Source: a virus
Virus record (IMG/VR): IMGVR_UViG_3300044856_000216
Span: 64,001 to 128,000 of that record
DNA: 64,000 nt
Reading direction: 5' to 3' (one strand)
The notes under the pieces are model-generated. The model was not told the origin of the DNA and searched no databases. It saw nothing but the letters and a program-made list of their open reading frames with translations. Shown here piece by piece: positions 1,823 through 61,860 of the stretch. Position 1 is the first letter of the stretch. The number at the start of each line of letters is the position of its first letter. The translations under genes were made by a program, and so were the position numbers.

Positions 1823-3211
1823 TTAATACTCTATCCAACCATCTGTAATACCAGTCATCCAATAAATAAGATCTTCTCTATCATTTTTTAATCTTCCATC
1901 TATTACACGAGTTAAGATTTCATTGAGCCAGTAGCCAACTTCTTTTCCACTTTTAATAAGCATTGTATCCATTACATCTTTTCCATTAACTGCTAAATCC
2001 TTTAGAGAAAAACATTCATCATCTTGTAAGACTTCTTCTAAAATATATTCAATTTTATCAATCTTTTGCAATCTAGTTTCCTGATTCATGTCTGCTTGTG
2101 CTTTAATGTCAGCTCTGCGAACATTTAGTAATCTTCTGAACTGTTCTTCTCCGATTTTATTAAGCCATCTCTTGATATATTTCTTTCCCACCTCAAAAGT
2201 AGCATCATGATAATAAACTAATTCAACGACCTTTTCTCTTGTATCATTGTCAAAACGAAGTCTTTTCATAATTGTATCAGTTATATCAGCACTGACTTTT
2301 CCATGCCCTTTAAAATGTCTAATACCATCTTCGCCATCTTGATAACAATGTGGCTTTCCAATATCATGAAAAAATACAGCCAATGACGTAATCAAATCTC
2401 TTGGATTCAAGTCGGGTTCACAATCACATTCATAAGCTTGTACTGCATGTACTGTATGATTCCATACATCATAGATGTGATATGGATTATTCTGTGGAAA
2501 ATCAAACATATCTTTTATTTCAGGGATAAATAACGAGAATACTTCACGGAATAATCCTATCTGTATATAAAACTCACTTGATAATGCAATTTTACAGAAC
2601 TCACTGTTAATTCTCTCAATAGATATATTCTCTAAATTCTTATACATTTTATGAATATTCAAACTTACATCAGAATCAACCACAAATCCCAGTTGTGAAG
2701 CAAATCGAATAGCACGTAAAATCCTTAAAGCATCTTCTGAAAATCTATCCTCTGCTTTACCAACACATCTGATTTTATAATGCTCAATATCTTCCATGCC
2801 ATTAAACGGATCTACAAAACCAACTTCATCATTGTATGCCATCGCATTGATTGTAAAATCTCTACGCTTTAAATCTTCTTTAAGATTTCGTGTAAATGTT
2901 ACACTATCAGGTCTACGGCTATCTGAGTAATTACCGTCAATTCTGTAAGTGGTACATTCATATCCCTCACCGTCAATTACAATGGTAATAGTTCCATGCT
3001 GCAATCCAGTTTCAATAATCCTCTTGTCCTTGAATACTTCCATCATTTCATCTGGTGTAGCAGATGTTGTAATATCATAGTCATGGATTGGTCTGCCAAG
3101 AATACTATCTCTCACTGCACCACCACATAAAAATGCCTCATATCCATTACTATGCAGAATATGGATAATTTCATTTGCACCAGATGGAATTTCAATTTTC
3201 AATCTTTTCAT
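1823..3211 (-). CDS. cca: CCA-adding enzyme / tRNA nucleotidyltransferase with HD domain
   Basis: GGAVRDSILGRPIHDYDITT head motif, RDFTINAMA, EDALRILRAIRFASQLGF, downstream FFHDIGKP HD motif; 462 aa. Confidence 0.9.
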   Translation of the reverse strand: MKRLKIEIPSGANEIIHILHSNGYEAFLCGGAVRDSILGRPIHDYDITTSATPDEMMEVFKDKRIIETGLQHGTITIVIDGEGYECTTYRIDGNYSDSRRPDSVTFTRNLKEDLKRRDFTINAMAYNDEVGFVDPFNGMEDIEHYKIRCVGKAEDRFSEDALRILRAIRFASQLGFVVDSDVSLNIHKMYKNLENISIERINSEFCKIALSSEFYIQIGLFREVFSLFIPEIKDMFDFPQNNPYHIYDVWNHTVHAVQAYECDCEPDLNPRDLITSLAVFFHDIGKPHCYQDGEDGIRHFKGHGKVSADITDTIMKRLRFDNDTREKVVELVYYHDATFEVGKKYIKRWLNKIGEEQFRRLLNVRRADIKAQADMNQETRLQKIDKIEYILEEVLQDDECFSLKDLAVNGKDVMDTMLIKSGKEVGYWLNEILTRVIDGRLKNDREDLIYWMTGITDGWIEY

Positions 3212-8904: not shown

Positions 8905-9381
8905 TTACAATAGTTTGTCAAACAAATCATTCGCATCAATTTTTACATACAAACTATTTGTCCTGATTCCAAGTTCATCGGATGTTTTTAATTCTTCTAT
9001 TGATTTTCCAAATAAAAAATTATGTGAAATTTTCTTTAGCTTTTTAGCTACAACATCAATATCATCTTCAGTTTTTAATACTTTTGTAATATGTACAGAG
9101 TCGTTAAATGTATATGCATTATTACATTTAGATTCCGTTGTTAATAATGTATTTGTTATAATTTTCTTATATGTGGTTTCTCCACTAGCACGATATACAA
9201 AATCAATATAAATAATTGGTTTTATATTATTCAAATCAATCATATTAACTTTTTCATATTGGATTTCTCTATCATCTGATATATTTTCAAATTTTTTTAA
9301 ATCCAGATTGTCCTTTAATATTCCAATTGGTTCAATATAAGACTGACCGCAATCTTCATCAATTTTATATGTTAAATACAT
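8905..9381 (-). CDS. hypothetical protein
   Basis: 158-aa ORF. Confidence 0.6.
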   Translation of the reverse strand: MYLTYKIDEDCGQSYIEPIGILKDNLDLKKFENISDDREIQYEKVNMIDLNNIKPIIYIDFVYRASGETTYKKIITNTLLTTESKCNNAYTFNDSVHITKVLKTEDDIDVVAKKLKKISHNFLFGKSIEELKTSDELGIRTNSLYVKIDANDLFDKLL

Positions 9382-9391
9382 AATTTACCTC

Positions 9392-9553
9392 CTAATCTAA
9401 AGAAAGAGAATTTTCAAGTTCAATCACGATTGTCTTCTTTTCTCTTCTTAACCATTTCTCAAATTCTTCGCCAGTTGCACAATCATTTTTGACAGGAATT
9501 TTATCACTGTTATCTATTTCTTTTATAAGCTCTTTTGCAAATTTAACTGACAT
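9392..9553 (-). CDS. small hypothetical protein (53 aa)
   Basis: Own translation MSVKFAKELIKEID...; fills the gap in the array. Confidence 0.4.
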   Translation of the reverse strand: MSVKFAKELIKEIDNSDKIPVKNDCATGEEFEKWLRREKKTIVIELENSLSLD

Positions 9554-9561
9554 AGTTCACT

Positions 9562-9681
9562 TTACTTCCTTGTTAATCTAATTATTATCTCTACAAGTCT
9601 CTCTTTACTCATAGCATGTAAATGCTCTCTCTTCTCATCATCTGAGCAGTTTTCAATAATTTTTAAATCACTCTCTGGCAT
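9562..9681 (-). CDS. small hypothetical protein (39 aa)
   Basis: Own translation MPESDLKIIENCSDDEK...; TAGGAGG upstream. Confidence 0.35.
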   Translation of the reverse strand: MPESDLKIIENCSDDEKREHLHAMSKERLVEIIIRLTRK

Positions 9682-9693
9682 TTTTTAATCCTC

Positions 9694-9828
9694 CTATCTC
9701 AACAATAAATATTTTAACCAATCAGGTATATCAGCATTTACGACCATGCTAAATATCCCAATGTTTACCAATATAGCGAGTATCGCAATTACTATAAACA
9801 TTCCTATAATGAACAACTTATCTTTCAT
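9694..9828 (-). CDS. small single-TM protein (44 aa)
   Basis: Own translation MKDKLFIIGMFIVIAILAILVNIGIFSMVV... Confidence 0.35.
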   Translation of the reverse strand: MKDKLFIIGMFIVIAILAILVNIGIFSMVVNADIPDWLKYLLLR

Positions 9829-10109
9829 ATTGACACATTCTCTCCTTGCCAACTCATATATCCAAGTATTAACAGTTTCTGTAAATCATTACCATGAAAA
9901 CCTGTTACATCACAAAATGCGCCAAGTATTTCTGTATCTTCATGTGTTATTGCATGATAATTTACACTATTACATTCTTCTAAGTGATTCATATTTCCGT
10001 TTTGGAAAAATGTATTATACAATATTTCATATCCAGTATTCGTCATTTTACCACTCTTTGAAATCTCGTAACTTTTTTCAATCAACTTGTCATCGTCAAT
10101 CAGTCCCAT
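9825..10109 (-). CDS. hypothetical protein
   Basis: 94-aa ORF. Confidence 0.5.
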   Translation of the reverse strand: MGLIDDDKLIEKSYEISKSGKMTNTGYEILYNTFFQNGNMNHLEECNSVNYHAITHEDTEILGAFCDVTGFHGNDLQKLLILGYMSWQGENVSI

Positions 10110-10392
10110 CGCCTAACTCCTTTAACATTTCACTCTGTATATCAGCAATCAATTTATTAACTCTTAAGACATCAGTATAGCTCGTCAATGTGTCAAGCAA
10201 TCTCTTTTCAAGTCTGTTTCTAAAATCGAAAATACCACTTTTTATAAGCATAATCTGCTCATCTGTAGCACGTTCCCATTTGTTAGTGTAATTACTACTG
10301 CAAATTGCACAAGGTTGCTCGGAATCTTTGTAAGCATATCTGCAACTACTACATATTTTTTCCATACTTTGCTCCTCTCTGATTTTTAGCAA
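10096..10392 (-). CDS. hypothetical zinc-ribbon-like protein
   Basis: 98-aa ORF, CSSC...CAIC. Confidence 0.5.
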   Translation of the reverse strand: MLKIREEQSMEKICSSCRYAYKDSEQPCAICSSNYTNKWERATDEQIMLIKSGIFDFRNRLEKRLLDTLTSYTDVLRVNKLIADIQSEMLKELGDGTD

Positions 10393-10849
10393 TTCTTTTA
10401 ATCTTTATATTCTCTGGAATATCCATTGGTCTGAAGTCAGATCTGACAATTCTAGTTATAATAACTGGCTTAACACCCCATTTTGTGTAGCACATGACTA
10501 TATCTCCTACAGATATATTCTCTACAAACATTCTCCATTTTTCGGATGTCGGCACTCTCCAAACGTATTCTTTATCACTCTGCTGATTCGGGTGTTTTCC
10601 ATATATGTATGTAACTACTTTATTTTCCCTTTCATATTCATATCTATATTGTTTGACATCTTCGACATCAAACTCTTTGAGCACTAAATATCTTATGTAT
10701 CCATCTACCAATTCTTTTTTATGGTTGATAATAATTGGCTTGTCCAGCTCCCCATGCTCTATAAAATATCTTTTTGCTCTATTCATCTTCGCCTCATTTG
10801 GTACAGATTCTGCAAGGTAATCTGGAATTATAATACTTGTTAGTTTCAT
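10349..10849 (-). CDS. possible ParB/Srx-like N-terminal-domain protein
   Basis: KPIIINHKKELVDGYIRYLVLKE resembles the ParB-N xDGxHR segment, but degenerate. Confidence 0.4.
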   Translation of the reverse strand: MKLTSIIIPDYLAESVPNEAKMNRAKRYFIEHGELDKPIIINHKKELVDGYIRYLVLKEFDVEDVKQYRYEYERENKVVTYIYGKHPNQQSDKEYVWRVPTSEKWRMFVENISVGDIVMCYTKWGVKPVIITRIVRSDFRPMDIPENIKIKRIAKNQRGAKYGKNM

Positions 10850-10875
10850 GTTTTATTTTGTTCTCCTTTATGTAT

Positions 10876-12297
10876 TTATGCGTTTGCCATCTTATCAAAA
10901 CTTCTCTTCATGAAGTCATAATTTACTTTCTGAGATGGACTAAACTTTTTTGTATTCTTATATTTATTAATCCATTCCTCAAACTTGTCCTCATTTTCAT
11001 TCTCACAAGCATATGCCATTAATGCGATTAAAGCTGTTTGGCATTGCTGATATATTGGAGCATTGACTTCAATTCCATTATGATCAAGGCAATAATCAAC
11101 AAGGTCAGAGTAAGTATCAATGTCCTCATCTGTCGCTTCTGGATTTGCGTTTTCCTGTACAAATGAGAGTGTTGATTCATTGGAGTTTTCGCCCTCTAAA
11201 ACTCTTGATTTTATTTGGTTTTTAAGGTCAAACATTTCCAACATAAGCGAAATATATGTATTTATCTTGTTTTGTATCAATTTTTTATCAGATGTACCAG
11301 GTTCTTTGTCAAGTATGTCATAGCTCCATCCATCAACCACTTTGTCATGTAAATTATTTACCAATTCATCTAAAAACTCGACAAATTTGCTATCTTCTAA
11401 TCCCAACTTAATGAATCTATGGAACACGGCAAACCAAACTGGGATATCTTTGAATACAAACAAGTTTTGGAATTTCTCTCCACAAACCTTTGCAATTCGA
11501 TTTCCGTATATATTAATTGTGTTAAATTCTTCATCAGAAGAGCTATTTTCGATAAATTCATTTCTGTCTTTCGGATTCTTTTTCCAATCATCCATATGAA
11601 ATACAGTCATTACAGAATTTGCAACTGTCTGCTCGTAAGTTCCATTCTTCCTCTTTGCACTTGAATATGTAACACAATTTTTGTAAAACTCATTGTTTGC
11701 AATGTTTTTAATTTTTCTTGCATATGTAGGAATCCATGTAAGAGCTTTCTGGTTTGAACCCATGCTCTTATTGCGGTTATACCTTCTTACTAACTTACTG
11801 ATTTCCATCATATTGCAGTTCTGATGAATAACAATTCTGATCTGATAATCATCAAATTTCTTTTTTAATTCATCAGGTAACTGCTCGTAAGTTTTATTCT
11901 TTATGTCAAACTCACAATTGTCCCAAAGAATGCTTCCGTTCTCATCTTTAATAAGATGTCCCTTTTCATCTCTTCGCTTCTTCTGATACTGAATAACGCT
12001 ATTCTCAAAAGATTTAGTTGTTTTCCAGTTCATATGCCTGAATTTATTCAGAGCTGTTGTTCTCTGAATACCATCAACTATATACTGCTGAGTTAAATTA
12101 TCTCCAAGCTCTTCCTCTCCAAGAATTATAGGAGGAATATAATCTTCATTAAGCACCGTATAGATTAGCTCATTTATTGCTCCATTATCCCAACAGAACA
12201 TTCTCTGAACGTCCTGATTTTCTGAAATATCTTCACTATTTACACTCTTTAAATATGAAGATAATGCTATTGCTTGTTCTCTTACCTTTTTTGCCAT
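10876..12297 (-). CDS. DUF262 (GmrSD N-terminal-type, ParB-like) domain protein
   Basis: VQRMFCWDN...IPPIILGEE...YIVDGIQRTTAL matches the DUF262 QR / DGQQR signature; no His-Me C-terminal domain recognised. Confidence 0.85.
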   Translation of the reverse strand: MAKKVREQAIALSSYLKSVNSEDISENQDVQRMFCWDNGAINELIYTVLNEDYIPPIILGEEELGDNLTQQYIVDGIQRTTALNKFRHMNWKTTKSFENSVIQYQKKRRDEKGHLIKDENGSILWDNCEFDIKNKTYEQLPDELKKKFDDYQIRIVIHQNCNMMEISKLVRRYNRNKSMGSNQKALTWIPTYARKIKNIANNEFYKNCVTYSSAKRKNGTYEQTVANSVMTVFHMDDWKKNPKDRNEFIENSSSDEEFNTINIYGNRIAKVCGEKFQNLFVFKDIPVWFAVFHRFIKLGLEDSKFVEFLDELVNNLHDKVVDGWSYDILDKEPGTSDKKLIQNKINTYISLMLEMFDLKNQIKSRVLEGENSNESTLSFVQENANPEATDEDIDTYSDLVDYCLDHNGIEVNAPIYQQCQTALIALMAYACENENEDKFEEWINKYKNTKKFSPSQKVNYDFMKRSFDKMANA

Positions 12298-23867: not shown

Positions 23868-25725
23868 ATCGAGTAGGAGGGAAATTTAACGAAATTTCCC
23901 GACCTCTCACACCACCGTGCGTACCGTTCGGTACACGGCGGTTCAATCAACTTAACAAGTAACGCACCTTTCGGTGTAGTAATCTAACATTGAGACTAAT
24001 CCAAATGAGGTTAGTCTCTTTGTACTTATAGCCTTTTGTATCCATCCATTGTGGGCGAGTCTTGCATATCTGTCTCCGCAATACGCTATTTTAAATGCTG
24101 CCCATCTTGGTACATCAAGTTTCATAAGGTTCTTTGCTCTGTTTTGTGGAGTTTTCCAATGTTTCCAAATGCACATACGAAGTCTGTATCTGATGCTACC
24201 ATCTAGTTCTCGACAAAGTGTTTTCATACTTCCAATTTTAAAGTAATTTATCCAACCTCTGATGAGTTGATTTAATTTCTCCACCTTGTAGCTGTTGCTA
24301 ACGCCCCAGCTACGGCATGTGAGTTCTTTCATTCTTTTCTTAAACTTCGCTACTGATTTTGCATGTGGTTTTGCCTTAAACTGATGTGCTCTTGTGTCAA
24401 AGTAGAACCCAAACCCAAGGTATTTAAGTCCGCTTGGTCTGTCTACTTTACTCTTTGTCATGTTGACCTTGAGACCTAGTTTCTCCTCAATAAATCGAGA
24501 TATGTTTCTCATTACCCGATTTGCAGACATTTCACTTCCAACCATGATAATACAGTCATCTGCATATCGCACAAAGTTAAGCCCTCGCTTTTCCATTTCC
24601 TTATCAAGTTCATTGAGCATGATGTTTGCCAATAACGGCGAAAGATTTCCTCCTTGCGGTGTTCCCACAATAGAATCCTCATATTCATCGTCTATCATGA
24701 TTCCGCTGACAAGGTATTTCCTTATGATAGAGATAACATCTCCATCTTTTATAGTTCTGCCTATGATAGTCATAAGCTTGTCATGGTTTACCGTGTCAAA
24801 GAACTTTTCCAAGTCAATGTCTACAATCCAATCGTTACCATCATTCATCATGTCAAGTGCTGTTAGGATTGCTTGCTGTGCACATCTATTCGGTCTGAAT
24901 CCATAACTATGTTCATGGAATTGTTCCTCGTAGATTGGTGTTAATACCTGTGCAATGGCTTGCTGTATGAATCTGTCTGTTACTGTTGGTACTCCTAGGT
25001 TTCTGACACCGCCATCGGGCTTTGGTATCTCCACTCTTCGTACTGGTTGAGGTTTATACTTTCTTGTCCCCAACTGTTCCTTGATGATTTCGCCGTTCTT
25101 TTCAAGATGTTCTTTGAGTTCCGTGTACTTCATTCCGTCCACTCCCTCTGCACCTTTATTTCGTACGACTTGCAGATATGCTCTGTTGAGATTATCGCTA
25201 GATAAAATCTGCTCCATTAGACTACTTGTGTCCATGCGTTCTTTCCTTTCCGTCTCGCTTGATTTGACCATCTTTTACCCGATTGGTTACGGCAGATGTT
25301 GCCATTTCTGCAATACGAGACATACTCAAACTTATTGATTGTTCGCCCCTTCGCTCCATTTCCATTACAGAAACTTCTTCACTACTATGGGCTCGGCTGA
25401 CTTCTCACAGTTCGTTGTTACTAGGCTAATAGAACCTCTGTGAGACCTCCACGCTTAAGGTGCACGCTCTTTCTCTCCATACATCCGCCACATTTACTCT
25501 GCTACTACAAAAAGTGATAATTATTAGACTTCGTTGCTTTTAGCCAACTTATCTCTCATAGCCTAGCCTTATATGTGATTTCTATCCGTCGGACCAGAGA
25601 TTTGCTTACAGCTTCCTTCAGATTCCATCTCACGATGAACACCCTTGCTGTTCAGCTATACACTTCCCACTATCTGGGCGTGTTCGGGACTTTCACCCGT
25701 TAGAGCGCGCCCATGGCGCGCAAAC
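23868..25725 (-). mobile_element. group II intron, class C (IIC)-like, 1858 nt
   Basis: 5' end GUUUGCGCGCCAUGGGCGCGC...GGGUGAAAGUCCCGAAC. Domain V GAACCGCCGUGUACCGAACGGUACGCACGGUGGU at 23911-23944. Domain VI has a bulged A (23874) 7 nt from the 3' end ...CCUACUCGAU. RT/maturase ORF inside; sits 7 nt after a terminator stem. Confidence 0.85.
23952..25271 (-). CDS. group II intron reverse transcriptase/maturase (no endonuclease domain)
   Basis: RT motifs incl. PQGGNLSPLLANI and VRYADDCIIM (YADD), plus a C-terminal maturase X region; 439 aa. Confidence 0.9.
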   Translation of the reverse strand: MVKSSETERKERMDTSSLMEQILSSDNLNRAYLQVVRNKGAEGVDGMKYTELKEHLEKNGEIIKEQLGTRKYKPQPVRRVEIPKPDGGVRNLGVPTVTDRFIQQAIAQVLTPIYEEQFHEHSYGFRPNRCAQQAILTALDMMNDGNDWIVDIDLEKFFDTVNHDKLMTIIGRTIKDGDVISIIRKYLVSGIMIDDEYEDSIVGTPQGGNLSPLLANIMLNELDKEMEKRGLNFVRYADDCIIMVGSEMSANRVMRNISRFIEEKLGLKVNMTKSKVDRPSGLKYLGFGFYFDTRAHQFKAKPHAKSVAKFKKRMKELTCRSWGVSNSYKVEKLNQLIRGWINYFKIGSMKTLCRELDGSIRYRLRMCIWKHWKTPQNRAKNLMKLDVPRWAAFKIAYCGDRYARLAHNGWIQKAISTKRLTSFGLVSMLDYYTERCVTC

Positions 25726-52164: not shown

Positions 52165-52261
52165 CTAAAACAGAGAATAAACATATGTAACAAATTAACG
52201 CAGCACTCAAAGGAGCTGATCGCAATGAATAATAATTTTAAAACAAAAGGAGAACTAATTA

Positions 52262-53607: not shown

Positions 53608-53651
53608 ACGGAGAATATATAAATGTAAAGAAATTTAAAAGGAGGAATCAT

Positions 53652-55080: not shown

Positions 55081-57948
55081 ATGACAAACAATAACGGAGT
55101 TTACATACCATCTATTGATGCAAAGGATATTTATTTATCAGCACATTACATTGAGGAAAATCCAGAAGGATATAATTTAAAGCTTAAAGATGGACAATAT
55201 AATTTACGAAAATTTATTAACACACTTGATTATAGCTTGGATCTTATAGAACTAAAAGATATTTATTATAGAAAATTCAGGAAACATGATTTTTCATTTA
55301 GAATTAAAAAACACGATTATTCTGTAAATGTAATTAATCTCACATTTAAGTATTCTGTAAAAGAATGGAATCAGATGAACAAAAATACTTTTGTCAGACT
55401 TGGATACGATTATAGGAATCTCTCTTTCGAAGATGGTATTGCTAAAAATAGTGAAGGTGAAATTGTCGGAATTAAGACGAATGAAAAAATTGAAAACCCA
55501 ATTGATATACCAAAGCCATTTGTTAAAAAGCAGGTAAATATCTATGATAAAAAGGATAAAACTGTTATTAAAGAGATTCAAAAGCAGTACCATAAAAAAG
55601 GCGAACCTAAGACTATAAAGACAAATGCAGAACTTAGAACTGAGTTGTATAAAGATGGATTTATCTGCAATGGTACTAAATATTGTCGAATGAAACGCTC
55701 TACTGGTTCAGCAAGAGTTGGTAAATGTCTCTTTATCAGAGAAGATTTATATGAACCAATTTTAAAATTCAGTTCAGGCGGTCTTAAATACAGCCAAGGA
55801 GATCCGATTGATTTAGCTGCATATGAGGGATATATTGCTCTCCCATCTAGTAGCATTATTGATACCATTCCAATTAAACCAGAAAATATTCTTTTAATTG
55901 ATGATTATGACAGCGTGTTTAATGAGGACGTAATCGAGACTCATGATGAAGATGGATGGCTTAAAACTACTGAAAAGAATTGTGAAATTACAAATACAAT
56001 TTGGGATGGTCAGTCTCTTATGGATATATCTCTATTTGGTGATTATTCAGAATATGGTATGCTTCTACTTAGAAATCTAATGTTCAAGTCTTGTTGTTTC
56101 AACTGTAATATCCAACAATGGTTTAAAGATAATAATATAACAGATGTGTCTCAGCTTAATGGTAAAACAAGAGCTACACGCATTGAAGATGTAAAGTTAA
56201 TTACCACACCTAACAGTATTAAATATTTGAAATTTAGTACATGGGATGAATGGCTTGACCACTTATATCCTGATTTTGGTGTTGTAAAGCATGATAAGAA
56301 AACTCACTTCTTTGGCGGTCGTTTGGTACAGACTCATTATCAGTTGCTCAATACCCTTCAGATGTCAAAAGATGAAGTAAGAGAATTCTTGCAAGAATCA
56401 TTTGACTTCGCACAAATGCTTAGAGATAGACCAGAAGTTGTACGCTATTACATTAAATATCCTGATATTGATGAAATGTCACCTATGGATAAACCTATGA
56501 GTAGCAAGAATGATGTGGTTTATAATTTAATGTGTGTAAATGATAATTTTACCAAGACAAAATATTATCAAGACTTTTTACATGATTTATTGGCATCATA
56601 TTACAAGAATCTTAAAAATGGACATATTTATGTAAATGGCAATTATTCTACTCTTCTTGGTAATCCAATAGAGATGCTACAGCAATCAATCGGTAAGTTT
56701 GAAGGAAAAAGTCAAATTGGAATTGGTAATATACATAGTACACGCTTTGAATATAATAAAACTCTTCTTGCCAGTCGTTCACCTCATGTTACAATTGGAA
56801 ACATTTGGCTTCCATATAATACAGAGAATAAATTGATAGATTGCTATCTCAATCTTACAAATGAAATTGTGTGTATTAATTCCATTGGAGAAAATGTATT
56901 ACAGAGACTATCGGGTGCTGATTTTGACAGTGATACAGTAATGTTGACAGATAATGAAAAACTCATTCGTGCAGCAAAAAGAAACTATCAGTTGTTTAAA
57001 ACACCAACTGCGAATGTTGATTCTACGAAGAAAAAAAGATATTATACACCAGAACAGCAAGCAGATCTTGACATCAAAACATCTGTAAATAAAATCGGTG
57101 AGATTGTTAATCTATCTCAGGAATTAAATTCTTTACTTTGGGATAAGATGTATCATGGTGCTACTTATAATGATATTAGGGAGTTATATTATGATATATG
57201 TCAATTAGATGTAATGTCTGGAATTGAAATTGATAAGGCAAAGAAAGAATTTATTATCAACAACGGTAAAGAGTTAGATAAACTACGTGAAAAGTATGAT
57301 GAACTTTTGCGTGAGTATGAAGAGAATGAAGAAGGCGAATTAGTAAGAGGCAAAAAGCGTATGCCACACTTCTTTTCTCATATTTCTAAGCAAAAGGGAT
57401 ATTATAATCCTGATAAAAAACATTATTGTAAATGTCACACTTCAATGGACTATTTACAGACTATTATTAATGGATTCAAAATTAAGAATCCATATAAGAA
57501 GGATTGGCTTCCATTTGTATCTATATTAGACAACTCTTTATTTAGGACATCTAGCATAAATCAAAAACAGATAAATCGAATTTATAGTATTTTAAAGAAA
57601 TACATAAATGAAAGGAAAAATATATTTGCCATTGATTCTGACTCAAAAGAAGAACGAAATGATAAAGCAAATAAGCTTAAAGTTGATTTAATTGCAGATA
57701 TTGAATCAGAAACAATTGGTTTTTCAACATTATATCGTTTACTTTCTTCTCTTGAAGATAAAGAAAATTCTCAAATCAAAAATCTTTTATTAGAAGTTTT
57801 GTATCTTTGTGGTAATGATAGTTTTAATAAAGCTGTTATCCAATCTAAAAATGAAATTCTCCAATTAGAAGATAATGGATCTGACATTAAATTATTTAAT
57901 ATTGGGTTTAAAATTACAAAAAAACAAGTAAATTCGGAAATCGAGTAA
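55081..57948 (+). CDS. YonO / RdRP-like single-subunit two-barrel RNA polymerase
   Basis: 955 aa; LLASRSPHVTIGNIW...LSGADFDSDTVMLTD (DFDSD at 56920-56934). This parallels the RxP-x-H-x-GD...sGgDxDGD block of cellular RdRPs and the NADFDGD motif of the RNAP beta' subunit. Confidence 0.75.
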   Translation: MTNNNGVYIPSIDAKDIYLSAHYIEENPEGYNLKLKDGQYNLRKFINTLDYSLDLIELKDIYYRKFRKHDFSFRIKKHDYSVNVINLTFKYSVKEWNQMNKNTFVRLGYDYRNLSFEDGIAKNSEGEIVGIKTNEKIENPIDIPKPFVKKQVNIYDKKDKTVIKEIQKQYHKKGEPKTIKTNAELRTELYKDGFICNGTKYCRMKRSTGSARVGKCLFIREDLYEPILKFSSGGLKYSQGDPIDLAAYEGYIALPSSSIIDTIPIKPENILLIDDYDSVFNEDVIETHDEDGWLKTTEKNCEITNTIWDGQSLMDISLFGDYSEYGMLLLRNLMFKSCCFNCNIQQWFKDNNITDVSQLNGKTRATRIEDVKLITTPNSIKYLKFSTWDEWLDHLYPDFGVVKHDKKTHFFGGRLVQTHYQLLNTLQMSKDEVREFLQESFDFAQMLRDRPEVVRYYIKYPDIDEMSPMDKPMSSKNDVVYNLMCVNDNFTKTKYYQDFLHDLLASYYKNLKNGHIYVNGNYSTLLGNPIEMLQQSIGKFEGKSQIGIGNIHSTRFEYNKTLLASRSPHVTIGNIWLPYNTENKLIDCYLNLTNEIVCINSIGENVLQRLSGADFDSDTVMLTDNEKLIRAAKRNYQLFKTPTANVDSTKKKRYYTPEQQADLDIKTSVNKIGEIVNLSQELNSLLWDKMYHGATYNDIRELYYDICQLDVMSGIEIDKAKKEFIINNGKELDKLREKYDELLREYEENEEGELVRGKKRMPHFFSHISKQKGYYNPDKKHYCKCHTSMDYLQTIINGFKIKNPYKKDWLPFVSILDNSLFRTSSINQKQINRIYSILKKYINERKNIFAIDSDSKEERNDKANKLKVDLIADIESETIGFSTLYRLLSSLEDKENSQIKNLLLEVLYLCGNDSFNKAVIQSKNEILQLEDNGSDIKLFNIGFKITKKQVNSEIE

Positions 57949-58066: not shown

Positions 58067-58390
58067 ATACAACAAGAAAAAAAATATTACAATCAACGAT
58101 TTATAATAAATCAAATTCAAAATGATACTGGCTGCTCTGAAAGAGATATTGGAAGAATATTATCGTCTTTGCGAGATTTGGTAAAGGATAAACTTAGTGA
58201 TAGTGAAGATAGTGAATTAAAAATATTCCCTGGACTAAAAGTAACTTCAAGATATATACCAACTGAGCAGTCTAATCTTAATTTCTGTAATAATGGAACA
58301 ATCAATTCTGATTTTCTATTATATCTTGATGGCGAATTCAGCCATAGATTCAAAGAAGAAATAAAACAATTACATAAAGTAAAACAATGA
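58067..58390 (+). CDS. HU/IHF-like DNA-binding protein (apparent non-canonical ATA start)
   Basis: In-frame extension ...NQRFIINQIQNDTGCSERDIGRILSSLRDLVKDKL...LKIFPGLKV follows the HU helix1-helix2-strand pattern. The first canonical start (TTG 58169) would delete helix 1. AAAGGAG at 58051-58057. Confidence 0.55.
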   Translation: MQQEKKYYNQRFIINQIQNDTGCSERDIGRILSSLRDLVKDKLSDSEDSELKIFPGLKVTSRYIPTEQSNLNFCNNGTINSDFLLYLDGEFSHRFKEEIKQLHKVKQ

Positions 58391-58533
58391 AATCAGCTTT
58401 TCTTGGCTGATAAAACAGAGAATAATAAAATGTAAACACCTTAAGTATATATTCATTGTACTTTACCTTTCTATAATCGGTGACTGTACTACAGTTCTTG
58501 TAGTATGGTCACTGATAATTCTTAAATATTATA

Positions 58534-58605
58534 GCGGAATGACGAGCAATGGAAGCTCACTTGGCTCATAACCAAGAGTATGCAGGTTCGAGTCCTGTTT
58601 CCGCA
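58534..58605 (+). tRNA. tRNA with CAU anticodon (Met or Ile2 type), slightly irregular
   Basis: D arm GAGC/GCTC; anticodon arm CTTGG-CTCATAA-CCAAG; T arm GCAGG-TTCGAGT-CCTGT. The acceptor is only 6 bp with a 4-nt connector. No encoded CCA. Confidence 0.6.
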
Positions 58606-59438
58606 ACTCTCCTACTTGTAGGCGGCAGGTTTCGTGTCGTTAAATAAACTTAGCAATAAGGATAAAGCAGGAATGTCTTTAGTTTGCATAAGACACTGCG
58701 ACTGCGCATAGTAGTTTGACGGAAAACACAGATAATCTATACCAAACCTAAAATCAGAGGGCTACTGCTAATGATATGGCTTGGTAGGGGTGATGAAAAA
58801 CGCCCTGTATTAACATGGAAACATGGGTATAATTACTGTCTTATTGGTGCGATTTCCGCAAGAAAAAGTGCTGATATTGATTGTTGTAATGTTTCTTAAT
58901 GCGAAAGCAAGGAACAGAACAATAAAGCAAGTCGATAGCAAGACGAACAGAATGGTGATGATTGGGCTGTACTCAAAAGGTACAGATGGTCAAATGTACA
59001 CCTCATCGTTCATATCATGCAAAAACAAATTACAACATACTTTTGAAATAAAAATATAATGCATATTTATATTAAAAGCAAATTAATATTTAAAGAATAA
59101 GCAAAAGTGTGTATGACCGCAAAGAGACAAACAACTTATTCATCTGCAATATGATGACATATAGCACTCGCAAGGTACTATATGAGAAAATACAAGTAGA
59201 CGCAACCGTAAGAGATTTGCACTCTCTGAACCCCGCAAGGGACGATGTATCGAAAGGAAATCTATAATGCTTTGTGGTAAGAGTTTGCCAATTTTCGCAA
59301 AATTGGTGTTGTTGTTACCTACAGTCTAATCGACTGTGTGATAAATTGTGTCCAACCACAATAGATGGTAACGTGTTAGGTCAATATCTCAGCCTAAAGA
59401 AATAAAGTCTCATACTTCGGTATGGGATTTTTTTATTT
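58606..59438 (+). ncRNA. ~830-nt non-coding, hairpin- and GNRA-rich region between two tRNAs (candidate large structured RNA, or two RNAs)
   Basis: No credible ORF. Many short helices capped by GAAA/GCAA/GUAA (e.g. CATG-GAAA-CATG, CCC-GCAA-GGG, CCAATTT-TCGCA-AAATTGG, CTGTAC-N7-GTACAG). Ends in a strong terminator. Confidence 0.5.
59407..59438 (+). terminator. rho-independent terminator (UUCG-capped)
   Basis: TCTCATAC-TTCG-GTATGGGA followed by TTTTTTTATTTT. Confidence 0.8.
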
Positions 59439-59514
59439 TGAGTGTGTAGCTCAGTTTGGCAGAGCACGTGACTTTTAATCACGGTGTCGATGGGTTCAAA
59501 TCCCTCCACGCTCA
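59439..59514 (+). tRNA. tRNA-Lys (UUU)
   Basis: Acceptor GAGTGTG/CACGCTC; D arm GCTC/GAGC; anticodon arm CGTGA-CTTTTAA-TCACG. The T arm has one bulged T. No encoded CCA. Confidence 0.7.
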
Positions 59515-59550
59515 CTACTATCCTACTTTGTAGGAAATAAATTAAAGGAT

Positions 59551-59721
59551 GTGAAAATTATTTTATTAATTAACAAAACAGAAGCTTTTGCAATGAGGGA
59601 GCTTATTGGGAAAGAGAATGTGAAAAAGACTTATAGTGGTCATGCAAAATACTATCTGGTTGAAGATGACCAGAATTTAAAAGCTTTGAGTGATTATAGA
59701 AAAAGTAAAATCGTTGGATAG
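59551..59721 (+). CDS. small hypothetical protein (56 aa, GTG start)
   Basis: Own translation VKIILLINKTEAFAMRELIGKENVKKTYSGHAKYYLVEDDQNLKALSDYRKSKIVG; AAAGGA upstream. Confidence 0.4.
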   Translation: MKIILLINKTEAFAMRELIGKENVKKTYSGHAKYYLVEDDQNLKALSDYRKSKIVG

Positions 59722-59755: not shown

Positions 59756-61195
59756 ATCGCAAAGAAAAAACATGAAGTAAAAGTAGAAATTATTGGAGGT
59801 AACGCTGAAGGTGTTACTGGTAGTTGTACTCGAATAAAAACTTCTGAACATTGCTATCTTTTTGAGTGTGGAATGATTCAAGGCAATCATACTGTGCTTG
59901 AAAATTATAGAGCCAATATGAAATATATTCAAAAAGTAAGACCACAAGAAGTCGAATTTATTATTGTTGGACATCTTCACGCAGATCATATAGCCATGAT
60001 TCCAACATTATATGCTCGTGGAAAATGTAATGCAAAAATAATTGTACCTAAAGGTTCAACTTCGATTCTAAAAGAAATGTGGCTTGATTCTTCATATATT
60101 AATTGTAGAGATATTGAAGTCATAAATCTTAAAAATGAAAGAAATTATGAGCCGTTTTATACTGAAGATATTGTATATAAAGCACTCGAATTTGTTCAAG
60201 AGATTGATTCTGATAAGATAGTAAATTTATCTGATGAACTTGCTATTAGATATACTGACGCAGGGCATGTTCTTCTATCTAAGCAATGTGAAGTATATAT
60301 AAACGGAGGTTCACATACTAGAAAAATTCTGTTTTCAAGTGATCTCGGTAATATTGCCACACAAGATACAAGAGTTTTTGTTGAAGATTTTAAACCTGTG
60401 TCATCGGCTAATATTGCAATAATGGAATGTACTTATTGCAGCAAGGAAAGACAATGTACTAAAGAAACATATAAAAAAGATATAGAAAAAATCAAATCTG
60501 TTATAGAACAATATTGTGTTGACAATAATGCAAGAGTTCTTATTCCGTCATTTTCACTTGACAGAACTCCATATATCTTATGGATTTTATATTCCTTATT
60601 TGGAAAAGATGCAAATTTCAAAGTACCAATTTTAATTGATAGTCCATTAGCAAATAGATTGTTAGACTGTTACTCTTCTATTCTTGAAGGTGATAAAAAA
60701 GAATTATTCGATGAAATGATGTCATGGAAGAATGTTCAAAGAATTATTCAACCAGAAAACAGTAAGGCAGCTATTGCAGACAAAGGTGCAAAAATCATTC
60801 TTAGTAGTTCAGGAATGTTGACAGCAGGGAGGTCAATTAAGTGGACTCAGAGTATTTTACCAAGAGAATCTGATTGTATCTTATTTATGGGATATTCTGG
60901 TGAAGATACATTAGCATGGAAAATAAAACATGGTAAAGATAACAAAACAATTAATATTAATGGCAAACCTTTTAAGAATAAGGCGCAGATTTACGATTTG
61001 AAGTCATTTTCTAGTCATATGCAGCGACAGGATATGATTAATTATTACAAATCTATAAATTGTGAAAAAATTTATTTAGTTCATGGTGATTCAAATAAAA
61101 TTGAGTTTAAACATGATTTAGAAGATGCAATATCTGATTGTCTTAAAACTACAAAAGTTATTGCTGTTAATAGCGGTACAAAAATCTCATTATAG
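59756..61195 (+). CDS. MBL-fold beta-CASP nuclease (RNase J / CPSF73-like), apparent ATC start
   Basis: GHLHADHIA (HxHxDH), SSGMLTAGRS, SFSSHM, LVHGD. The in-frame upstream KVEIIGGNAEGVTGSCTRIKTSEHCYLFECG is the conserved first strand/motif 1 and precedes the first ATG (59873). Confidence 0.8.
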   Translation: MAKKKHEVKVEIIGGNAEGVTGSCTRIKTSEHCYLFECGMIQGNHTVLENYRANMKYIQKVRPQEVEFIIVGHLHADHIAMIPTLYARGKCNAKIIVPKGSTSILKEMWLDSSYINCRDIEVINLKNERNYEPFYTEDIVYKALEFVQEIDSDKIVNLSDELAIRYTDAGHVLLSKQCEVYINGGSHTRKILFSSDLGNIATQDTRVFVEDFKPVSSANIAIMECTYCSKERQCTKETYKKDIEKIKSVIEQYCVDNNARVLIPSFSLDRTPYILWILYSLFGKDANFKVPILIDSPLANRLLDCYSSILEGDKKELFDEMMSWKNVQRIIQPENSKAAIADKGAKIILSSSGMLTAGRSIKWTQSILPRESDCILFMGYSGEDTLAWKIKHGKDNKTININGKPFKNKAQIYDLKSFSSHMQRQDMINYYKSINCEKIYLVHGDSNKIEFKHDLEDAISDCLKTTKVIAVNSGTKISL

Positions 61196-61221: not shown

Positions 61222-61860
61222 ATGCCTATGAATAAAGATTATTTACAGTTAGAGTTTGATAATTTAGGAAGTGAAGCAAATTACAAACTTGCAGATCCGA
61301 CTCTTGTTGATTATTATAAGCGATTAAATAATCGTGAAATTCTTATTAATCAGGATATTGATGACGGAATTGTAGAATGGACTCAAGAAATAGTTGAATG
61401 GAATAGAGAAGACAAGGATATAGCGATTGCCGAAAGAAAGCCAATTAAGATTTGGATTAATTCAAATGGTGGTTCTCTTAATGCAATAAACGAGCTTATT
61501 AATATCTGTAATCTTTCTAAGACACCAGTTTATGCTATTGGAATGGGAAAATGTTACTCCGCAGGAGGGCTTTTGCTTATGGGTATTCCAAGGGGTAACA
61601 GATATATTTTGTCATCTACTGAAGCACTTATTCATGATGGCTCTACAGGCAGTTACGGAGACACTGGCAAGGTACTTGATGATTTAGAGAGAACTAAGAA
61701 AATTGAGGAAGATACAAAACAGTTTATTTTAAGTCATACAAAGATTACTGAGAGTGAATATGATAAAAATTATCGTAAAAATTGGTGGTTAGATGCTAAC
61801 GAAATTATTGAAAAAGGCGTGGCTGATCACATTATTACAAATATTGAGGAATTATTTTAA
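61222..61860 (+). CDS. ClpP-family (S14) serine protease-like protein
   Basis: IKIWINSNGGSLNAINELI...GMGKCYSAGGLLL...ALIHD parallels the ClpP Ser/His regions. Confidence 0.8.
   Translation: MPMNKDYLQLEFDNLGSEANYKLADPTLVDYYKRLNNREILINQDIDDGIVEWTQEIVEWNREDKDIAIAERKPIKIWINSNGGSLNAINELINICNLSKTPVYAIGMGKCYSAGGLLLMGIPRGNRYILSSTEALIHDGSTGSYGDTGKVLDDLERTKKIEEDTKQFILSHTKITESEYDKNYRKNWWLDANEIIEKGVADHIITNIEELF

Follow-up and report, generated by a model that had tools for sequence, protein, structure and literature searches.

Evidence for a Full-Length, Divergent GOLLD RNA between Two tRNA Genes of a Large Human-Gut Phage

The IMG/VR virus record IMGVR_UViG_3300044856_000216 harbors, in the stretch of 64,000 nucleotides (nt) analyzed here (positions 64,001 to 128,000 of the record, referred to as the window and numbered from its first letter), a non-coding region of ~830 nt that is located on the + strand at 58606–59438, between two transfer RNA (tRNA) genes. 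We identify this region, with high confidence, as a full-length, divergent GOLLD RNA carried by a large human-gut phage. The window RNA has a conserved secondary structure of two domains in which many substitutions are compensatory, and it does not encode protein. It is a new, sub-threshold member of the known GOLLD family, and neither a new class of RNA nor a set of two RNAs. An initial annotation, made from the letters alone, had suggested a large ornate RNA of the GOLLD or ROOL kind, "either a member or something new", and had proposed an Infernal scan with Rfam models and an analysis of covariation in homologous loci; the former returned a full-length GOLLD match and the latter strong covariation, both pointing to a member of GOLLD.

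Match to the GOLLD Model

When 58350–59600 was scanned with cmscan and matches were reported by expectation value (E), the Rfam GOLLD model RF02032 aligned to 58950–59395 on the + strand with 87.7 bits and an E of 4.5e-23, covering model positions 1–416 of 416. The gathering cut-off curated by Rfam for RF02032 is 150 bits, which is an operational annotation threshold and not a structural feature. As the score lies below this cut-off, the default Rfam scan of the window, which applies the gathering thresholds, reported nothing in 58606–59438, and the region consequently looked unannotated. For the same reason, membership in the family was tested independently, using synteny, conservation of structure, and tertiary and 5′ features. 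Since all of the tested GOLLD structural features were found, the sub-threshold score is treated as a sensitivity limit of the Rfam seed alignment. The other large phage RNA considered, ROOL (RF03087), gave no match in the window at the gathering score, nor in 58350–59600 at E up to 10, and the models for HEARO, OLE, raiA, group I introns and RNase P gave none in 58350–59600 at E up to 10.

The protein of 955 amino acids (aa) encoded upstream of the region was used as a query to collect 78 IMG/VR loci, so that 79 loci (L001–L079) could be compared; the relatives are viral contigs of 60–176 kilobases (kb). Twenty of these loci carry an RNA that is 74–82% identical to the window RNA. Two members of this subfamily, L012 and L079, score 100.2 and 89.0 bits against RF02032, within a subfamily range of 87–100 bits, and the window RNA is thereby a member of a distinct GOLLD subfamily that lies wholly below the Rfam threshold. 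The 176-kb phage MT835469.1 from human feces encodes an 80% identical relative of the 955-aa protein, and at the equivalent position carries a tRNA-Met, followed by a GOLLD at 172.6 bits (the L001 GOLLD) and then by another tRNA. Threshold-passing GOLLD RNAs also occupy the same slot in L004 (171.2 bits) and L039 (191.4 bits), and in close copies of these two.

Conservation of Structure among Homologues

The secondary structure was assessed with an alignment (A2) of the window RNA and 16 distinct homologues, comprising 975 columns, in which identity to the window is 74–81%, with one sequence at 67%. RNAalifold predicted 202 pairs in A2, of which 86 are retained through changes on both sides. 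In the true register, 98.5% of the cells are paired, versus 35–46% in controls in which the 3′ partners were slid by 1–3 columns, and the 86 pairs changed on both sides compare with 11–16 in these slid controls. None of 500 column shuffles of A2 attains any of the observed pairing measures. The compensatory support covers the 5′ domain, the 3′ domain and the terminator hairpin of the region: helices 2–17 of the 5′ domain are each 95–100% paired, most of them with compensatory pairs, while helices 18–19 and 21–30 of the 3′ domain, which coincide with Rfam consensus helices, are 99–100% paired in the 17 sequences, each with 1–5 pairs changed on both sides. An all-against-all search of A2 for additional covarying stacks yielded candidates that are mostly spurious, because the window family is shallow and mosaic. 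The pseudoknot PK1 (see below) and the hairpin trailing the upstream tRNA alone were retained from this search, as these are backed by a literature table or by independent loci. The folding energy of the whole 832-nt segment is −214.2 kcal/mol (z = −3.0).

The tertiary features of GOLLD are likewise present. The covariation (R-scape) table for env-38 GOLLD lists two non-nested pairings, 467–471:555–559 and 576–580:743–747 (PMC12286853 supplement), and both are found in the window at equivalent model positions and with full complementarity. In the first of these, PK1, UGUACAC at 58995–59001 pairs with GUGUAUG at 59109–59115, which directly follows the conserved GCAAAAGU. All cells of PK1 are paired in A2 (100%), with one pair varying between A-U, G-C and G-U, and in other GOLLD types, the strands read GGUGUAG/CUACACC (L039), GGUGUUG/CAACAUC (L004) and GAUAGAC/GUCUAUC (env-38). 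In the second, PK2, ACAAC at 59131–59135 pairs with GUUGU at 59308–59312, both strands being invariant within the window family, and the equivalent strands are GUGAC/GUCAC in the Rfam consensus, CAACC/GGUUG in L039 and CGGUU/AAUCG in L004. For both pseudoknots, these differences are fully compensatory, a statement that holds for comparisons with L001, L004, L039, the Rfam consensus and env-38.

The 5′ domain lies upstream of the RF02032 match, and here the window RNA and env-38 have a common opening at an equal distance from the 5′ end, consisting of a hairpin, UAAAUAAA, a 3-bp GNRA hairpin, GGAUAAAG, a further hairpin and CUGCG. In the window, this start motif, GUCGUUAAAUAAA-CUUAGCAAUAA-GGAUAAAG, is conserved and located at 58635–58666 inside the 5′ domain. 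As the 5′ similarity to env-38 is only suggestive by its score, IMG/VR was searched for the motif GTCGTYAAATAAA-N8-16-GGATAAAG, which is present in at least 120 contigs (L080–L199). Among the matches listed, 96 contigs extend at least 900 nt downstream, and the 3′ hallmarks of GOLLD, recognized here by motif and not by covariance model, follow at defined distances: a YCAAAAG loop motif at +336 to +435 in 93/96, CGCAAG at +480 to +680 in 90/96, and a YCUCAGY end motif at +725 to +816 in 62/96. The insert of the start motif (the H4 hairpin) always consists of a C, a GNRA loop and the two strands of a 3-bp stem around it; among the matches listed, this stem takes at least 11 different forms related by compensatory changes. 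Judged by these motifs, the 5′ domain of the window RNA is of the common env-38-like GOLLD type, though shorter.

Anatomy of the RNA

GOLLD proper probably begins near 58623 and extends over ~775 nt, roughly 58623–59396. The region marked in the initial annotation begins at 58606, but its first ~17 nt (58606–58622) are part of a trailer hairpin, a feature present after each of the tRNA cassettes in this phage group. This hairpin (CTCCT-ACTT-GTAGG, 58609–58622, + strand) belongs to the tRNA cassette and not to GOLLD, and three of its five pairs covary in A2. The 5′ domain, as defined by RNAalifold and pair counts, comprises 15 covarying helices, H2 and H4–H17 (58623–58949, ~327 nt, + strand), and contains invariant GAAA loops at 58818 and 58903. 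The 3′ domain (helices H18–H30, 58950–59396, + strand) corresponds to the RF02032 match over model positions 1–416, and presents the hallmarks CUCAAAAGG, GCAAAAGU, CUCGCAAGG and AUCUCAGCCU in the same order and with the same spacing as relatives that score above the gathering cut-off.

All seven hairpins that the initial annotation had listed exist on the + strand, at most 1 nt from where it had placed them, and are part of the conserved structure: CATG-GAAA-CATG (58814–58825), TGC-GAAA-GCA (58900–58909), CTGTAC...GTACAG (58967–58984), CCC-CGCAA-GGG (59231–59241), GCCAATT...AATTGGT (59287–59307), TACAGTC...GACTGTG (59320–59338) and ATTGTG...CACAAT (59345–59362). The region is also richer in G+C than its surroundings, as had been claimed, with a G+C fraction of 0.38–0.415, versus 0.235–0.295 for the upstream flanks and 0.275–0.305 for the A/T-rich middle (~59000–59100). 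The strong terminator, proposed at 59407, was recovered by a terminator scan as an intrinsic-terminator-like hairpin of 12 bp with a UUCG loop (59404–59431) and a T-run, together spanning 59404–59438 on the + strand and ending 1 nt before tRNA-Lys; its fold has a z of −5.9, and four pairs of this hairpin (helix 31) are changed on both sides in A2.

Two elements of the 3′ domain are variable or additional with respect to the model. One is an A/U-rich linker at 59012–59101 (+ strand, G+C ~0.28), the length and sequence of which vary in A2, and which, in the cmscan alignment, falls on a part of the model that is unpaired and A/U-rich, exceeding it by an insertion of 30 nt. Its counterpart in env-38 is a disordered linker that faces the interior of the cage (PMC12286853). 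The other is an extra hairpin, AGAGA-UUUGCAC-UCUCU (helix 24, 59211–59227, + strand), which appears as a 25-nt insertion in the cmscan alignment and has three of five pairs covarying. The palindromic UGCA in its loop (59218–59221) is invariant in A2 and, by analogy with the L21a/L21b loops of PMC12286853, may act as a self-complementary kissing loop. RNAalifold also draws a helix 20 of 13 bp, between 59033–59045 (CAACAUACUUUUG) and 59102–59114 (CAAAAGUGUGUAU), that would close the A/U-rich linker. The sequence of helix 20 is constant throughout the family, its 3′ side overlaps that of PK1, and env-38 lacks an equivalent helix. Monomers could adopt this pairing instead of the PK1 contact, with which it would compete.

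Weighing the Assignment

Several observations weigh against the assignment to GOLLD. The score of the window RNA is well short of the 150-bit cut-off, and its central multi-stem region deviates from RF02032, with one model hairpin missing, the extra hairpin at 59211–59227, and several model pairs that are non-canonical. Together with a linker that is 30 nt longer and a shortened helix 22, these departures account for the low score. Profiles of the 5′ and 3′ halves of the window family, used with nhmmer, match only the same family and not the GOLLD RNAs of sister phages, and find no significant match in env-38. The local 5′ alignment to env-38 is weak when taken alone, its score being attained by 20/500 shuffles, and the 5′ domain is ~63 nt shorter than in most GOLLD RNAs with the start motif (+337 versus about +400 among the matches listed). 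The T-run of the terminator abuts tRNA-Lys, so that transcription of tRNA-Lys is hard to explain. Finally, as the oligomer state differs among GOLLD and ROOL members (PMC12990946), the 14-mer described for env-38 cannot be assumed for the window RNA. The divergence in sequence is pronounced: when the window RNA and the GOLLD from this slot in MT835469 were aligned by MAFFT, the agreement was near random, indicating that sequence alone fails to relate these types, and blastn of 58400–59600 against GenBank phages recovered tRNA-Lys only, with no deposited close relative of the RNA there. With default filters, a covariance model of the 3′ core (R1, built from alignment A4) finds no RNAs other than those of the window type; with the filters off, it places the 3′ core of L001 correctly, though weakly (20.7 bits, E 6.6e-4), and is too narrow for a census.

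A silent default scan, a score below the gathering cut-off, nhmmer profiles that miss both sister-phage GOLLDs and env-38, and a central region unlike the model are what would be expected if this large structured RNA formed a class of its own and were GOLLD-like by chance or convergence. Such a class would, however, not be expected to match all 416 model positions at E 4.5e-23, to have both GOLLD pseudoknots at equivalent positions with compensatory differences, to present the hallmark motifs in the same order and spacing, to have a start motif with a covarying GNRA hairpin in common with env-38 and at least 120 contigs with GOLLD 3′ hallmarks, or to be replaced by a threshold-passing GOLLD in the same slot of sister phages. 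We consider this explanation exceedingly improbable, and largely refuted already. A decaying, non-functional GOLLD remnant would also explain the low score, as well as the missing model hairpin and the absence of the RNA from some close relatives. In 17 variants with identities of 67–81%, however, 98.5% of the pairs are kept through compensatory changes, indicating ongoing selection on structure. Furthermore, the pseudoknot strands (except for the one varying PK1 pair) and the loop motifs are invariant, and no other occupant is found in the slot as often as the window subfamily (20/79 loci). Decay of the RNA is therefore given very little probability.

The initial annotation had also raised the possibility that the A/T-rich middle splits the region into two RNAs, one 5′ and one 3′. 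The middle at 59012–59101 is indeed A/T-rich and poorly conserved, a weak promoter-like match is found at 59154–59181, and the 5′ and 3′ domains of GOLLD form distinct structures within the cage (PMC12286853). Nevertheless, the A/U-rich stretch is a variable linker inside the GOLLD 3′ domain that is spanned by the Rfam model: the first hairpin of this domain (58950–59011) lies upstream of it, PK1 pairs 58995–59001 with 59109–59115 across it, and a terminator scan found no terminator in the middle. The promoter-like match falls within conserved helices 22 and 23, and such matches are not commoner than in shuffled sequences. The env-38 RNA is a single chain that includes the linker (PMC12286853). 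Two separate RNAs are thus very improbable here. A small protein is a still weaker explanation and has practically no probability left. Only open reading frames (ORFs) of 32–78 aa are found between the two tRNAs, those on the + strand being 42–78 aa long, and none is conserved. The longest, the 78-aa ORF at 58823–59059, is interrupted by stops or frameshifts in 16/16 homologues, and the same is true for the 42-aa ORF, with stops at codons 5–25 and length changes that are not divisible by 3; the two shorter ORFs persist in a few near-identical relatives only. The substitutions are pairwise-compensatory and not codon-like, in agreement with the earlier view that the region is without a credible ORF.

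Exchange of Large RNAs at One Slot

The position occupied by the window RNA is a hot spot, the content of which differs among the relatives. The slot is located just downstream of the 955-aa gene, at locus coordinates ~9300–10700, equivalent to 58404–59440 of the window, and homology between the window and the relatives ends at 58404–58443 in all of them. In L030, homology breaks at window position 58417, and a ROOL begins 22 nt later. Occupants were classified by Rfam scans and BLAST. The window-type GOLLD is the commonest (20/79 loci), followed by the L001/L039-type GOLLD in 15/79 loci, which are relatives with a 955-aa protein that is about 80% identical, and the L004-type GOLLD in 2/79. 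ROOL is found in 10/79 loci, with L029, L030, L031 and L046 scoring 282–356 bits and L033, L056, L057, L064, L071 and L075 assigned by similarity, and a HEARO is present in one (L034, 88.6 bits). In about 30/79 loci, the slot contains ORFs, or a lone tRNA that is followed directly by the beta-CASP gene (e.g., L011). The exchange is evident even among phages with 955-aa proteins that are 94–97% identical, which have a window-type GOLLD, an L004-type GOLLD, a ROOL, extra ORFs or a lone tRNA in the slot.

Since near-identical phages hold GOLLD, ROOL or neither at one slot, GOLLD is here an accessory and probably dispensable module that is replaceable at its locus by an unrelated cage-forming RNA. 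The three GOLLD types found at the slot are mutually unalignable by sequence. The GOLLD RNAs of the sister phages (L001/L039 and L004 types) resemble the window RNA in slot, strand, tRNA neighborhood, 3′-domain architecture and pseudoknots, but are essentially unalignable to it despite 955-aa proteins that are 80–97% identical, have 5′ regions without nhmmer similarity detectable to the window-type 5′ domain, and pass the Rfam threshold.

A context-based suggestion that GOLLD and ROOL have related functions has been made before (PMC5737381), and their exchange at one slot supports it. We tentatively extend this suggestion: in this lineage of gut phages, GOLLD and ROOL may be cassettes that can stand in for each other functionally at a single hot spot of recombination, a notion that we would rate as plausible but somewhat short of probable. 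A literature search found no description of GOLLD/ROOL exchange at a single locus, although it may nonetheless have been reported. A search for a third large RNA in relatives without GOLLD or ROOL (L042, L035, L078, L006) gave no Rfam match at E <1e-3, and the G+C of the gaps is at background (0.25–0.34). The slot gaps of such relatives have no homologues among the fetched loci. ORF-free gaps of 0.5–1 kb with a G+C of 0.29–0.34 are found in the slot of L042 (~9933–10675), L078 (~9926–10990) and L035 (~9929–10462).

Transcription, Processing and Neighboring Genes

ARAGORN and Rfam agree with the initial annotation that the region lies between two tRNA genes, and place both on the + strand. The upstream tRNA-Met(cat) is located at 58533–58607 (Rfam 47.6 bits), with the discriminator A at 58605 followed by the bases ACTCTC, and the downstream tRNA-Lys(ttt) at 59440–59515 (57.7 bits). 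In Firmicutes, RNase Z trims CCA-less tRNA precursors directly behind the discriminator, while the 5′ end of tRNAs is generated by RNase P. As neither flanking tRNA encodes CCA, a tRNA-Met–GOLLD(–tRNA-Lys) precursor would release GOLLD by tRNA processing. The RNA would be transcribed from the + strand together with tRNA-Met, from a promoter near 58403–58435. A cut after the discriminator of tRNA-Met would then free its 5′ end (about 58606), and its 3′ end would be set by the terminator at 59404–59438, or by RNase P at tRNA-Lys (59439/59440). In the wider set of GOLLD RNAs with the start motif, an upstream tRNA is rare (9/89, all window-type), and a tRNA, mostly tRNA-Met, is found 8–49 nt past the 3′ end in 30/56 (both counts among the matches listed), which suggests that the 3′ end of such GOLLD RNAs is commonly defined by RNase P.

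The candidate promoter region at 58403–58435 (+ strand) combines a sigma-70-like match, TTGGCT-17-TAAAAT (58403–58431), with an overlapping GAGAATA-N5-ATGTAA element (58418–58435), and its promoter function is a matter of inference. The sigma-70-like match agrees at 9/12 positions, and such matches are not commoner here than in shuffled sequences. The GAGAATA-ATGTAA element, which had been noticed initially upstream of the tRNA, is present in three + strand copies versus 0.25 expected (52173–52190, 53611–53628 and 58418–58435). All three have the flank TAAAAC(A/G)GAGAATA in common and are located upstream of a gene or of the tRNA–GOLLD unit, and TAAAAC(A/G)GAGAATA-N5-ATGTAA may be a promoter specific to the phage. 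Among the relatives, L023 alone has kept the element at the corresponding position.

Between the candidate promoter and tRNA-Met, a perfect leader hairpin of 18 bp, including G·U pairs, is located at 58476–58516 (+ strand), 16 nt upstream of the tRNA (−25.6 kcal/mol, z = −7.6). Due to the G·U pairs, it is more stable as a + strand RNA than as the − strand (−16.2 kcal/mol), which argues for a transcription start upstream of 58476. In alignment A6, relatives with and without GOLLD apparently keep the leader hairpin ahead of their first tRNA, though with altered stems, and its role may be in RNA processing or stability. A trailer hairpin of the CCTAC-TT(T)-GTAGG type, found by folding at 59521–59535 (+ strand) after tRNA-Lys, is conserved after each tRNA cassette, including the downstream tRNAs of the relatives (A7). 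The flanking tRNAs themselves are shuffled among near-identical phages, with Asn, Met or Thr upstream and Lys, Ile, Pro or Thr downstream, and none of them encodes CCA. Anticodon switching on one tRNA scaffold was ruled out, as the acceptor stems differ, indicating distinct tRNA cassettes.

The window also encodes proteins that handle RNA, and a protease. A CCA-adding enzyme (PolyA_pol head, tRNA_NucTran2_2 and HD) is encoded at 1823–3211 on the − strand, in keeping with phage tRNAs that lack CCA. The gene for a beta-CASP/RMMBL metallo-beta-lactamase ribonuclease-like protein is located immediately downstream of the tRNA/GOLLD island (59873–61195, + strand), and a ClpP protease gene is found nearby (61222–61860, + strand). 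The gene for the 955-aa protein lies upstream of the slot at 55081–57948 (+ strand). Neither Pfam (no match) nor PHROGs (PHROG 8308, function unknown) assigns a function to this protein. In phages of Enterocloster and Thomasclavelia, distant relatives carry the annotation "RNA-dependent RNA polymerase", and the 955-aa protein has an ADFDSD motif; it may belong with YonO to the single-subunit RNA polymerases. A scan of the window at gathering score shows one further large RNA only, a group II intron at 23868–25639 (− strand), with Rfam matches to D1–D4 and domain V/VI (131, 47 and 42 bits) and a 439-aa ORF at 23952–25271 inside it.

Comparison with Known RNA Cages

The GOLLD RNA of env-38 (PDB 9MEE) forms an RNA-only cage, a 14-mer according to cryo-electron microscopy (PMC12286853), whereas the 3′ domain of Streptococcus agalactiae GOLLD forms a 10-mer (PMC12990946, PMC12286853). 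With GOLLD as described (RF02032; Weinberg et al. 2009; env-38), the window RNA has in common the full-length match of the 3′ domain, the order of helices and hallmarks (the UCAAAAG loop, GCAAAAGU, CUCGCAAGG and the 3′ end AUCUCAGCCU), both covariation-backed pseudoknots, the internal A/U-rich linker, a separate and less conserved 5′ domain (about 330–420 nt in the family) with an env-38-like opening, and a location in a phage adjoining tRNA genes. It differs in its 87.7-bit score, in the missing hairpin and the extra one with the UGCA loop, and in the shorter 5′ domain. It also differs in being flanked by a tRNA at either end and in the terminator hairpin that separates its 3′ end from the downstream tRNA, whereas in the wider GOLLD set, among the matches listed, a tRNA is usually located 8–20 nt downstream and rarely upstream. 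ROOL, which also assembles into RNA-only cages (PMC12286853), is similarly large, ornate, phage-borne and close to tRNAs, and occupies the same slot in the relatives, but it has another fold, is an 8-mer of about 580–620-nt subunits, and is not matched in the window by sequence or structure.

By analogy with env-38 GOLLD, the window RNA would fold into two domains, a 5′ "cap" and a 3′ "ring", and its A/U-rich linker would be directed toward the inside. Kissing loops and A-minor contacts may then join copies of the RNA into a closed cage made of RNA only; we infer this assembly from the likeness of the two RNAs. The PK1-type pairing and the self-complementary loops may be contacts between subunits. 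It is possible that the altered central junction and the shorter 5′ domain give the cage of the window subfamily another subunit number.

Implications

A 0.8-kb stretch of a large gut phage that appeared empty is now annotated as GOLLD. As an entire subfamily (20/79 related loci), at 87–100 bits, falls under the 150-bit cut-off, the number of GOLLD RNAs in gut viromes is probably underestimated. From the tRNA-flanked layout follows a model, open to testing, that has the ends of the RNA defined by enzymes of tRNA processing. GOLLD expression has been reported to rise during lytic growth. The window RNA could, speculatively, be an accessory RNA compartment or scaffold that is made during infection and tied to phage tRNA and translation supply. 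The polymorphism of GOLLD, ROOL or none at a defined slot is a more valuable lead than the RNA itself, as near-identical phages that differ at the slot are matched natural genotypes for competition, swap and pull-down work. If GOLLD and ROOL were functionally equivalent, two unrelated cage-forming RNAs would fill the same dispensable, tRNA-linked role, and the phage lineage would constitute a natural allelic series for finding the role of both.

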